In this document: in pieces, positions 39,001 to 42,000 of the stretch
Numbering within the stretch: the stretch's first letter is position 1
Layout: every line of letters begins with the position of its first letter
Sequence record: KT429160.1
Source: Staphylococcus phage SPbeta-like
Strand: one strand, 5' to 3'
DNA length: 64,000 bases
Made by a program: the position numbers

Positions 39001-42000
39001 TAGATAAGACATTTGCTTCTTCATTTCATCAATACTATGCATATAGCAATAGTAATAAAACTCATCAACTTCTCTGTCTCCTTCTTTTGAGTTTAAGAAT
39101 ACTCTATGAACATCTCTGTCTTCTGGTCTTGCATAATGAGTGTCATTAGCTACAATACATTTCAAACCAGTTTCATTAGCTAAGTTAACTAAATGCTTAT
39201 TACAATAAATTTGTACTTCACTTTCGGCTGGTTGTAGTTCTACATAGAAATCATCTTTACCAAACGTCTCAATGCACCAATGTAATTCTTTTCTGGCTGC
39301 GTTATAACAGTTAGCTATTTCTTCAGATGAAGAACCATTTTCCTCAGCCGCTTTCATTTTCTGTAATTGAATATTAACGCTTGAACCAATACAAGCTGTC
39401 GTAGCCATGATCGTTCCTTTATATTCTTCACTTGTAGCCACACTTCTTAAAAAGTCTTTAGTAGTTGGTGTTCTCTCCATCAAACCTGTAAAGAAACTAT
39501 TCTTCCAAGCTTCACTAGATAACTTGCTTAATGCCTCAAAACCTTTTCTATTCTTAGCCATTAAAATGAAATGAGGGAATTTAGTTACTCCTCCACCAAC
39601 ATAGTTATCTCTAACCTCTTCTAAGCTATCAACTAAATATATTTCGTTACCTAAGACTAATTTAAAACTTTCATCTACTATATTTTGTTCCTTTAGAGAT
39701 TTTAATTCTTGTATCATTTGTACTGCACTTGATAAACTCTCATGTTCGGTAATAGCTAAACCATTGTAACCAAGTTTACTTGCTGTCGTTAATAATTCTT
39801 TTGGTGACGTAATAGCGTCAATAATTCTAAAGTTAGAAAACATTGTATGGTTATGTAAAGCCATTCTCTTCTTACACACAATCTATTCCTCCTAATTACT
39901 ATTTTTAACATATTCTAAATATTCCATACTTGTCATACTATTAGTTTTTAAATTCTTTTCGATCATATCAACTTGCTCTTCACTTAATTCTTTAGGTTTA
40001 TCTTCTTGCGTTCCAGTCATAATAAAAGAACCAACTAAGTCACTTGGTGGAAGATCATCACCTTTGAAAGCTACTTCAGTAATATGAGTATACTCTCCCG
40101 TGTCTAGTGCGTTTTCATTAACCCAAAAACCAATACTAATTCTCTTATGTCCTAAGGTAATAGCTGAACCGTTTAGGTTATTGCTTACAACACTTGCAAT
40201 TTCTTCTCCTTCTTCCAACTCTATTCTTTCTAATGATTTTTTGTTTTCGTCATATTTTAAAATCATATTATCACTCCTTCTTTTATTATTATATTTTATT
40301 TCTTAAAGTAAGTAAATAGTTTTTTATACATTTAAGAATGATTTTAGAACGATTAAGAAAAGTTTAACATAAATTTTTTATATTATGATAGTCTTTTTTT
40401 GCAAAACACTTTATTTGAAGGAGAGAATTATTATGACAATCTTATCAAAATTATCTAAAGGAATTGCAGTTACAGCTGTTGCTACTGGAATTTCATTATC
40501 ACCTATTGCAAGTTCAAATATTTCTCATGCTGCTACTGAAACAACATCTACGACTCAAAATAACAATGCAGCTGGTCAAATTAGTAAAGTCGGAGAAAAT
40601 GACGCTCAATTTAATTTAAACAAAAATGTTACATACGATGTTGATGAAAACGGAATTGCTACTTTAACTGATAAAAACAACGGTAAAACTGAACAACTCC
40701 CTTACAGTGCTAAAGATAAAGATGGTAAGGATGTTACTTTAGTTTATTATGAAGAAAATGACAAGCTATTTGTACACGCACAAGAAAAATCATCTGAACG
40801 TGGATGGAAAAAATGTGCAGCTGGTATAGCTGGTGGAGCAACTACTGGAGCGACTACTGTTGGCTTAGCTGGAGCAAGTGTTGGTACAGTAACATTGCCG
40901 CTAGTTGGCACAGTAGGCGGTGGTGTTGTAGGTGCTGTCGGCGGTGGTGTCGGTGGCGGCTTAACTGGTGGAGCAACGTTCTGCGGTAAATAATAAACAT
41001 TTAAAGGTGTTTAAAAATGACTAACATATACAAATGGTGGATATTAATTATATTGAGCTTAATATTGATCGGATGGTTATTCTTTAGTATTCGCTATGGT
41101 AATCTTGCGGTTGAAGAAGTGTTAATCATCAATGTATTTTTCATTATAGCTTACTTCCTTTATCTAATTAATTATATACGCTTTAATAAATCGTAATTAC
41201 TATACTAAGAATAATTTTTAGACAGTCACTATTAACTTAGTGACTGTCTTTTTTATAACTTAATATTTCTATACTAAACTTTACTATAAGAACATTTGTT
41301 CGTATAATAGTATACATAATACTATTTATTGGAGTGAATTTAACATGAGACCTTTACCTGATGAATATAAAAATGAAACTGATTATCGTAAAATTCCTAG
41401 TGAGTATTTAGATAAAGTTATACCTCAAGGTCGTGAAAAAATTAATTGGCAACCATTTGCCACTATTCCTGAGCAATTTGAAAAACTTAAAGAATACATC
41501 ATTGATCAAAATAAAACTGACAGGTCTTCCCTCTCATCTGCTCAATTTGAATATATAAATAATAAGCTTAACTATTGCTATAAGAACCATGCTCCAATAA
41601 CTATTTATTATTGGAATAACGGTTATATAAGTAATCTCTATTGTTATATTAAGGCAGTTGACTTAACTGAAAAACATTTAATAGTTTCAAACGAAAATGG
41701 AAATCAAACTAGAAGAATAAGTTTTAAAAACGTATGTGATGTAGACTAATAAATATAACTAGCTTACCAGCCTTTTATAATATATAATAGATATTGTAAA
41801 ATATTTATATAGTTGAAGGGGGAGATTAAATATGCCAGCAGCTCTTAGAAAGAAATGTCAACGTTGTGGAAAAACTAAACGTTTAAATGAATTCTATGAA
41901 AACTCAACTAAAGCCGATCATCGTAATGGTATTTGCAAAGCTTGTCAAAAAGAAGTTAACGGATAATAAAAAAAGGGCTTATAGCCCTTTCTTTTTTTAT

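Follow-up and report, generated by a model that had tools for sequence, protein, structure and literature searches.

Within a long array of minus-strand genes, the genome of Staphylococcus phage SPbeta-like (KT429160.1; the 64,000-nt stretch analysed here is called the window) carries a short island read from the plus strand, and the question it raises is what the first two genes of this island do. One (40433-40993) encodes a glycine-rich protein with a predicted Sec-type signal, the other (41017-41196) a 59-aa protein with two predicted transmembrane (TM) helices. An original prediction, made from the DNA, had seen in them a bacteriocin-like toxin and its immunity protein. Our results bear out this reading in part: the homology of the C-terminal module to the bacteriocin cerein 7B, relatives in operons with double-glycine (GG) leaders, the conservation of the pair and the occurrence of orphan partner genes all speak for it. 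Judging from the sequence evidence, we think it probable that the two genes, carried as prophage cargo, function as an antibacterial toxin-immunity system.

A cerein 7B-like module in a protein with a Sec-type signal

The putative toxin gene (40433-40993, plus strand) encodes 186 aa. The longest version of its open reading frame (ORF) runs from 40385 to 40993, and the true start is almost certainly the ATG at 40433, because a Shine-Dalgarno sequence (GAAGGAGAG, 40417-40425) and the GenBank start coincide there; the length of 187 aa given originally is corrected accordingly. Residues 1-33 (40433-40531) are predicted to be a Sec signal peptide, whose n-region contains K6 and K9 and is followed by a hydrophobic core and the junction S-H-A/A. 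This signal was judged from the sequence and from its conservation in alignments of homologues, both of which agree with the earlier description of a Sec-signal protein, and the N-terminus has neither a lipobox Cys nor a GG leader. A beta-rich domain with eight predicted strands follows (residues ~46-118, 40568-40786). It is acidic (~85 aa, ~9 kDa) and has an invariant motif, E87-x-L89-P90...D95...Y105, and no significant match was found for its fold. The C-terminal module, delimited by conserved residues and by alignment to cerein 7B, extends from G124 to C184 (40802-40984). Its C128-C184 segment of 57 aa consists to 82% of G/A/V/T and contains 11 GxxxG motifs, so that the glycine-zipper tail bracketed by two Cys, as originally described, is indeed present. 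The segment is marginally hydrophobic (maximum KD19 of 1.57 vs 2.2-2.5 in the helices of the partner), and C128, C184, P156 and a ladder of Gly are invariant in the family alignments. The predicted mature protein has 15.3 kDa and the module alone 5.4 kDa; class II bacteriocins are defined by an unmodified mature peptide of <10 kDa.

Cerein 7B is an experimentally active bacteriocin of Bacillus cereus (Bc7) that kills S. aureus and L. lactis and has been modelled as two helices with a Pro-containing loop between them (PMC10295673, whose supplement prints the sequence). A profile of 145 family modules, from which cerein 7B was excluded, aligns with it from end to end at 61.6 bits, against a mean of -6.1 (sd 3.1, maximum 12.6) for 5000 composition-matched shuffles. 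The window module itself is collinear with cerein 7B in a global alignment (z=9.9), and PT1028 ORF011, a family member from S. aureus, shares 65% identity with it over 52 ungapped residues (E=5e-6). Both sequences, of ~57-61 aa, have a W-x-K-C start, a terminal pair of Cys, a central Pro, two GxxxG motifs and a GLTG-ATFC end. Thus, W125, K127 and C128 correspond to W6, K8 and C9 of cerein 7B, P156 to P32, G147xxxG151 to G24xxxG28, G171xxxG175 to G43xxxG47 and GLTGGATFC184 to GLTGAATFC56. In an alanine scan, cerein 7B lost activity when either Cys, either glycine of G24xxxG28 or G43xxxG47, K8, W2, W3 or W6 was changed (PMC10295673), and those essential positions that have a counterpart here are invariant or nearly so across the family. 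On these alignments we have hardly any doubt that the module is homologous to cerein 7B.

Cerein 7B, a peptide of 56 aa that NCBI lists under 'class IIb bacteriocin, lactobin A/cerein 7B family' (TIGR03949), is synthesised with a GG leader, whereas the window protein has a Sec-type signal and a beta-domain of ~85 aa ahead of the module. The latter is also prophage-borne and without a nearby exporter: no gene for an ATP-binding cassette (ABC) transporter or C39 peptidase lies within 8 kb on either side of the cassette. Neither TIGR03949 nor PF10439 matched the 186-aa protein or the module even at E<=10; the relative P0168, which has a GG leader, reached 15.2 bits with TIGR03949 (cut-off 21.5), and PF10439 gave merely 'faint' matches to P0168 and to a second such relative, P0139. 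Gly-zipper_Omp, Gly-zipper_YMGG, Gly-zipper_OmpA and Rick_17kDa_Anti matched neither the module nor the Bacteroidota members of the family at E<=10, and in Pfam, NCBIfam, PADLOC and PHROG no informative family was returned for the two window proteins (186 aa and 59 aa) or for isolated modules. A search with the module alone found only close staphylococcal fragments, probably as a result of composition filtering.

A conserved partner gene downstream of the putative toxin

The second gene (41017-41196, plus strand) begins 23 nt past the stop codon of the first and has its own Shine-Dalgarno sequence (AAAGGTG, 41003-41009). It is missing from the GenBank annotation, and our analysis confirms the reading frame and the two hydrophobic helices that had been proposed for it. 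The helices span residues ~9-25 and ~35-51; a basic N- and C-terminus and an acidic loop suggest an N-in/C-in topology. Together with the terminator downstream (41220-41256), the two genes would form a bicistronic operon with Shine-Dalgarno sequences of its own, which we count in favour of a toxin-immunity pair.

A small ORF at this position is a general feature of the family. Among 41 loci from Firmicutes, Actinobacteria and Bacteroidota, 35 have a two-TM ORF of 52-81 aa with a basic C-terminal tail within 130 nt downstream of the toxin gene, and of the six exceptions two lie at contig ends, two have a decayed toxin gene, one is truncated and in one the ORF falls narrowly under the hydropathy threshold. 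In unsaturated staphylococcal pairs, the ratio of non-synonymous to synonymous substitution (dN/dS) is 0.14-0.33 for the partner and 0.14-0.37 for the toxin, indicating purifying selection on both, and as the value of the partner is near that of the toxin we regard the partner as a real gene. The two small genes of the island thus exceed chance, being kept across many genomes and under purifying selection. Furthermore, the sequence type of the partner tracks the variant of the toxin tail: partners of the type 'W..KFGNI..IAYILYL' go with the tail GGLTGGATFC, those of the type 'WPIFF..VSNIG..PFLL' with GGASGGYVAGC, and a third type accompanies the short module of PT1028. In the island adjacent to guaA of many S. 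aureus genomes, an intact partner of 63 aa (P0270, on at least 395 contigs) is preceded by only the last 11 codons of a toxin gene. Such an orphan, kept where the toxin is gone, fits an immunity gene and not a helper in secretion or assembly.

Gene callers and deposited annotations often overlook the partner gene (41017-41196 here; 3853-4032 in the PT1028 locus L048; also L043 and L046). It is absent from the annotations of MT955612.1 and AY954948, and exact copies of the window partner are recorded for 27 contigs, those of the neighbouring toxin for 874. The orphan-partner island near guaA in S. aureus (L053, 6207-6804) also contains fragments of an Ntox35 toxin gene and of an Abi_2 gene, and appears to be an armoury of conflict systems or their graveyard.

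Family breadth and N-terminal architectures

Close homologues of the 186-aa protein occur in staphylococci and Mammaliicoccus, where all are entered as 'hypothetical' or 'Pathogenicity island protein'. A scan in which each species was represented by one genome extended the family to Bacillus, to Corynebacterium, Rothia, Mobiluncus and other Actinobacteria, and to the Bacteroidota Chryseobacterium, Flavobacterium, Tenacibaculum and Ohtaekwangia, in which the module, the most conserved part of the protein, retains 61-78% identity to that of Staphylococcus over ~60 aa. An exhaustive profile search returned 414 clusters with E<=1e-3 in three phyla (clustering at 50% identity), of which 141 reached E<=1e-10.

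Three kinds of N-terminus precede the module: a GG leader, a Sec signal with the beta-domain as in the window, and, in Bacteroidota, a probable lipoprotein signal with an unrelated helical domain and the junction 'GWWxSWGKC'. In the short members P0139 and P0168 the module comes right after a classic GG leader ('MKTLSFDLMEQIEGG' and 'MKKLEISQMENLQGG'). The P0139 locus (L039) encodes, in this order, the precursor, a 60-aa two-TM ORF, a 207-aa membrane protein, a thioredoxin-like protein and an ABC exporter with a C39 peptidase; this gene content is that of a canonical class II bacteriocin operon, the small ORF occupying the position of the immunity gene, and the thiol-disulfide enzyme fits the Cys bracket of the module.

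A giant protein of 2713 aa (P0074), with DUF285, HYR and SUEL-lectin domains, matches positions 35-81 of the beta-domain profile 15 times through a recurrent strand motif, '...V.LDENG.A.IT...'. We rejected these apparent repeats as copies of the beta-domain; they are merely a short common strand motif inside Ig-like/HYR repeats. As the motif is common to the repeats of P0074, the beta-domain may be distantly Ig-like or adhesin-like.

Distribution and mobility

The exact window toxin is found on 874 public contigs, including those of S. epidermidis RP62A (identical protein AAW54918.1), S. capitis, S. haemolyticus and S. hominis, and the PT1028-type protein on at least 1000 contigs of S. aureus. 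The cassette sits in SPbeta-like prophages, in islands at guaA that resemble S. aureus pathogenicity islands (SaPI) and carry integrase and small-terminase genes, in the SaPI-like element PT1028, in chromosomal islets beside a Rep_1 remnant, ars genes or a gene for a resolvase or an aminoglycoside adenylyltransferase, and in a chromosomal variable region of Bacillus velezensis and its relatives. Of 50,697 phage records, only those of the present phage and of PT1028 contain it, and the related SPbeta-like Mammaliicoccus phage phi6255 has a syntenic plus-strand YolD island with other cargo and no cassette. These varied settings, the few phage carriers and the state of phi6255 mark the cassette as mobile accessory cargo in a variable hot-spot.

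In the Bacillus velezensis group (L049, 9024-10684) the pair adjoins a gene for a ParA-like ATPase and a HEPN RiboL-PSP gene, which may form a defence pair. A role of the pair as holin or spanin in lysis is unlikely, given that the cassette also occurs outside phages and that the endolysin gene (CHAP, Amidase_3 and SH3b_P2 domains; 8845-10347, plus strand) lies ~30 kb away, which places the cassette outside the lysis module.

A proposed mechanism and its alternatives

We propose that 40433-40993 and 41017-41196 would constitute a self-contained bicistronic toxin-immunity cassette. Its 186-aa product would be exported by Sec with loss of the signal peptide of ~33 aa, leaving a mature protein made up of the acidic ~9 kDa beta-domain and a C-terminal module of ~5.4 kDa from the cerein 7B lineage. 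Outside the cell, a disulfide between C128 and C184 would clamp a glycine-zipper hairpin bent at P156, and this marginally hydrophobic hairpin could enter the membrane of sensitive Gram-positive neighbours, self-associate through its GxxxG faces and damage the membrane; such a membrane attack is the action expected from the homology to cerein 7B. The active form might be the whole 15-kDa protein, with the beta-domain targeting or solubilising it, or the module after proteolytic release; the beta-domain might equally serve to target the protein, to keep the hairpin in solution or to retain the product on the producer. The 59-aa protein would reside in the membrane of the producer with its short loop facing outward and protect the lysogen. 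Lysogens, and cells whose SaPI or other islands bear the cassette, would then kill or exclude relatives without it, as sublancin and SunI do for SPbeta. We infer immunity, membrane attack, the disulfide, Sec export and the ecological role, taking the steps after export from the homology to cerein 7B and its published alanine scan.

Several observations weigh against a toxin-immunity system of this kind. For the 186-aa protein there is no hit with TIGR03949, with Pfam Bacteriocin_IIc or with the glycine-zipper models, and direct BLASTP of this protein against cerein 7B is not significant (E=0.64), which is why profile and shuffle-controlled tests were used and why the proposed link comes from profile, transitive and shuffle-controlled alignments. 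Compared with cerein 7B, the window module has ~9 extra residues and no counterparts of W2 and W3, both required by cerein 7B for killing S. aureus (PMC10295673). AlphaFold2 models from 16 sequences and from a deeper set of 77 are confident for the beta-domain and of low confidence for the module (pLDDT 31-55), so that the suggested geometry of hairpin and disulfide finds no support in the model. A fused beta-domain is without precedent among class II bacteriocins, and the protein could remain on the producer cell. Partners from different phyla have no detectable sequence similarity (z about 0) and are alike in size, topology and position alone, and none of the 49 partner homologues is annotated as an immunity protein, all being labelled hypothetical. 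The candidate promoter of the operon is weak by consensus (9/12). Finally, cerein 7B alone is known by experiment to be antibacterial, and activity of the members with a Sec signal or a lipoprotein signal would follow from their relationship to it.

The possibility that the product stays on the cell leads to an alternative that we consider unlikely, namely that the product is a membrane-anchored surface protein whose glycine-zipper hairpin, after Sec export, holds the beta-domain in the lysogen's own membrane, with the 59-aa protein as its membrane partner, and that the pair changes the envelope, for example to keep superinfecting phages from injecting their DNA. Carriage as prophage cargo in a moron hot-spot and a fused beta-domain that is well folded in the models would suit such a function, the Bacteroidota versions are lipoproteins and therefore tethered, release of the product from the cell is part of what we infer, and the Gly-rich segment has weak PHROG matches to Gly-rich stretches of tape-measure proteins (E=0.09-0.1). 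However, the part of the protein that is conserved best between Staphylococcus and Bacteroidota (61-78%) is the module, whose homologue cerein 7B kills as an externally added peptide, and with a maximum KD19 of 1.57 it is less hydrophobic than the helices of the partner (2.2-2.5). Its GG-leader relatives are encoded with bacteriocin ABC transporters as exporters, the cassette is also found at non-phage chromosomal sites in Bacillus and Actinobacteria, an orphan partner would make no sense for a pair of anchor and partner, and the PADLOC scan was without matches.

Retention on the surface could also go together with killing. In a contact-dependent toxin like CdzC/CdzD, the beta-domain or a lipid anchor would keep the protein on the surface or on vesicles of the producer. 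This is a variant of the toxin-immunity explanation with a different mode of delivery, and quite improbable in our judgement: there are no type I secretion genes near the window cassette, and cerein 7B is active as a free peptide (PMC10295673), even though contact-dependent killing is on record for glycine-zipper bacteriocins that form aggregates at the cell surface (PMC5380434), the Bacteroidota lipoproteins have acidic residues after the lipobox Cys that fit display on the surface or on vesicles, and the 'D-x-N-G-x-A-T' strand motif of the beta-domain also occurs in the repeats of a giant protein resembling adhesins. A host-directed virulence or colonisation factor, or else inert cargo, appears very improbable. 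Several sources do name the protein 'Pathogenicity island protein', SaPI-like elements often have virulence cargo and the exact protein, on 874 contigs, is widespread in clinical coagulase-negative staphylococci, but the name derives from location only, the family also lives in soil Bacillus, Flavobacterium, Chryseobacterium and Ohtaekwangia, both genes are under purifying selection and the link to a bacteriocin operon is specific.

Comparison with sublancin and other known systems

SPbeta lysogens kill non-lysogens by means of sublancin. The prediction had placed the SPbeta genes in the order sunA-sunI-uvrX-yolD and had taken the window cassette for a non-homologous replacement of the sublancin genes. 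The actual order is yolA-yolB-T-yolC(-)-yolD-uvrX-sunI-T-sunA-sunT-bdbA-sunS-bdbB; yolD and uvrX are indeed neighbours of the sublancin genes, yet they come before sunI-T-sunA. The window cassette lies upstream of yolD, at the position of yolA-yolB, whereas sunI and sunA are downstream of uvrX, so the cassette was not swapped for them, and the window phage has no uvrX at its yolD island. We tried YolA and YolB of SPbeta as counterparts of the window pair and rejected them (YolA E=5.2). SunA gave tblastn matches in Bacillus phages only and has no sequence relation to the window cassette. The likeness to sublancin is therefore one of function and neighbourhood and not a positional swap: like sublancin 168 and SunI, the window cassette, known from its sequence, would be a bacteriocin with its immunity gene carried near yolD of an SPbeta-type prophage. 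Sublancin is likewise disulfide-dependent and SunI a small, membrane-bound immunity protein; unlike the window protein, sublancin belongs to the glycocins, is S-glycosylated and comes with a dedicated ABC exporter, a glycosyltransferase and Bdb oxidoreductases.

Enterocin P and lactococcin 972 are Sec-dependent class II bacteriocins without a GG leader and with the immunity gene directly downstream; in these the signal joins the mature peptide directly, whereas the window protein has a folded domain in between.

Two glycine-zipper systems offer a further comparison. CdzC/CdzD of Caulobacter are secreted by a type I system, aggregate on the cell surface and kill by contact (PMC5380434), and TelE is an LXG effector of the type VII secretion system with a C-terminal glycine zipper (PMC10434224). 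Both need the glycine zipper for their toxicity to membranes, and the adjacent gene encodes a small membrane or a dedicated immunity protein (PMC5380434, PMC10434224). Compared by these descriptions, they use secretion systems different from that of the window protein and are without its Cys...Pro...Cys bracket, and the idea of a pore-forming module combined with varied delivery domains applies to all of them.

Novelty and significance

We found no earlier description of the system in the literature on glycine-zipper bacteriocins, cerein 7B immunity or lipoproteins, bacteriocins of SaPI or prophages of Staphylococcus, and SPbeta-like phages of S. haemolyticus. Within the literature searched, the fusions of the module to a Sec signal with beta-domain and to a Bacteroidota lipoprotein appear to be undescribed, as do the conserved unannotated two-TM partner, the carriage by staphylococcal prophages and SaPI, and the orphan partners of S. 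aureus. The system is not categorically new, because the killing module belongs to a known bacteriocin lineage.

If the pair is what we propose, a function would be given to a 'hypothetical' or 'Pathogenicity island protein' gene on hundreds to thousands of staphylococcal genomes (RP62A, many S. aureus), and a partner gene that often escapes annotation pipelines would be brought to notice. Staphylococcal SPbeta-type prophages would then carry a bacteriocin with its immunity gene as SPbeta does, tying the carriage of prophages and SaPI to competition among skin and nasal staphylococci. That a class II module is also found in Sec-exported domain fusions and in fusions with a lipoprotein widens the targets for genome mining of bacteriocins. 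As cerein 7B is being explored as a selective agent against S. aureus (PMC10295673), the natural cognate and orphan immunity-like genes could be a ready-made source of resistance.

A wider interpretation, which we put forward tentatively and hold to be rather doubtful as a whole, is that the cerein 7B hairpin is an ancient cross-phylum killing module to which at least three front-ends for delivery, interchangeable among themselves, have been joined: the GG leader used with an ABC exporter; the Sec signal followed by a beta-domain of previously unseen fold in Firmicutes and Actinobacteria; and, in Bacteroidota, the surface lipoprotein with its helical domain. Each version would be paired with a small two-TM immunity protein, independently recruited or diverged. 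As noted, the lack of similarity among partners of different phyla (z about 0) leaves a single cross-phylum partner family unsupported, and neither does the window partner match characterised immunity families in Pfam, NCBIfam, PADLOC or PHROG. The Sec version would be a widespread and overlooked weapon of staphylococcal prophages and SaPI, hidden under the label 'Pathogenicity island protein' and serving lysogen-versus-non-lysogen killing or addiction, with the beta-domain targeting a receptor as in modular bacteriocins of the colicin type. The orphan immunity genes of S. aureus might then shape which staphylococci resist which variants.

Organisation of the island and its neighbouring genes

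Window positions 39800-42700 match MT955612.1 (Staphylococcus phage SPbeta-like 2, host S. haemolyticus) at 100%, record positions being converted to window positions by adding 16679. Every other gene annotated at record positions 15075-34057 is on the minus strand, and all plus-strand ORFs of at least 90 aa at 11.3-55.9 kb overlap minus-strand genes, so that annotation and ORF overlap agree on a single plus-strand island flanked by two minus-strand gene blocks. The sequence features ascribed to the island are real; its description as one unit bounded by terminators on both sides has to be revised. The terminator on the right holds: a hairpin between an A-run and a T-run (41972-41990), which would act in both directions and is shared with the convergent minus-strand gene at 41997-42638. 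On the left, no terminator was found in 40267-40432; this edge is a divergent promoter region instead, since a promoter-like site on the minus strand (40288-40316, TTTACT-17-TATAAT, 10/12) would serve the leftward gene block. The candidate promoter of the toxin operon is at 40364-40392 (plus strand, TTAACA-17-GATAGT). The operon is closed by a predicted intrinsic terminator (41220-41256, plus strand; 12-bp stem at 41220-41249 followed by a T-run), internal to the island and ahead of yolD. Given this internal terminator, the divergent left edge and a LexA box at yolD only, the island appears to be composed of two or three independent transcription units.

The YolD-like gene (41345-41749, plus strand, 134 aa) is well supported by PF08863 (97.1 bits vs a cut-off of 27.5, E=6.6e-28) and phrog_3352 (E=9e-36). 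Its predicted promoter (41280-41308, plus strand, TTTACT-17-TATAAT) carries, as had been reported, a LexA (Cheo) box, GAACATTTGTTC, in the spacer (41290-41301), with the pattern GAAC-N4-GTTC between -35 and -10, which makes yolD a candidate member of the LexA/SOS regulon. The CxxC...CxxC mini-protein of the earlier description was also recovered, as a zinc-ribbon ORF of 44 aa (41832-41966, plus strand; CQRCGK...CKACQK) with a candidate promoter at 41774-41802. Its PHROG matches, with E values as low as 2.9e-9, put it among the zinc ribbons found in endonuclease VII and Lar-like proteins, and its exact sequence is present on 869 contigs. Both yolD and the zinc-ribbon ORF would be separate units in the same variable cargo hot-spot, outside the toxin system.

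Other elements of the window

Exact LexA/Cheo boxes occur twice in the window, against 0.38 expected by chance. The second (GAACGTTTGTTC, 11213-11224) lies ~30 nt upstream of a minus-strand ORF of 58 aa (11003-11179) without a Pfam match, which may be another SOS-controlled small phage gene.

The region 55890-63942 has the appearance of a composite antibiotic-resistance element. A perfect inverted repeat of 1328 nt (57075-58402 and 60311-61638) encodes a Mutator-family (IS256-type) transposase split into ORFs of 258 aa and 140 aa, and between its copies is a bifunctional aminoglycoside-modifying gene (GNAT+APH, 479 aa, 58477-59916, minus strand), an arrangement that identifies a Tn4001-like gentamicin-resistance transposon by its sequence. 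It is bracketed by direct copies of a 224-aa transposase gene of the IS240/IS257 type (55961-56635 and 63268-63942), and fragments of a DegV gene are duplicated at the arms of the element. At 7668-7765 (plus strand) there is a match to the Rfam family rli23, a Listeria antisense RNA (103.7 bits vs a gathering score of 45), which is probably the antisense RNA of an IS3-type element, because it lies opposite a minus-strand ORF (7569-8045) with rve integrase-core domains.

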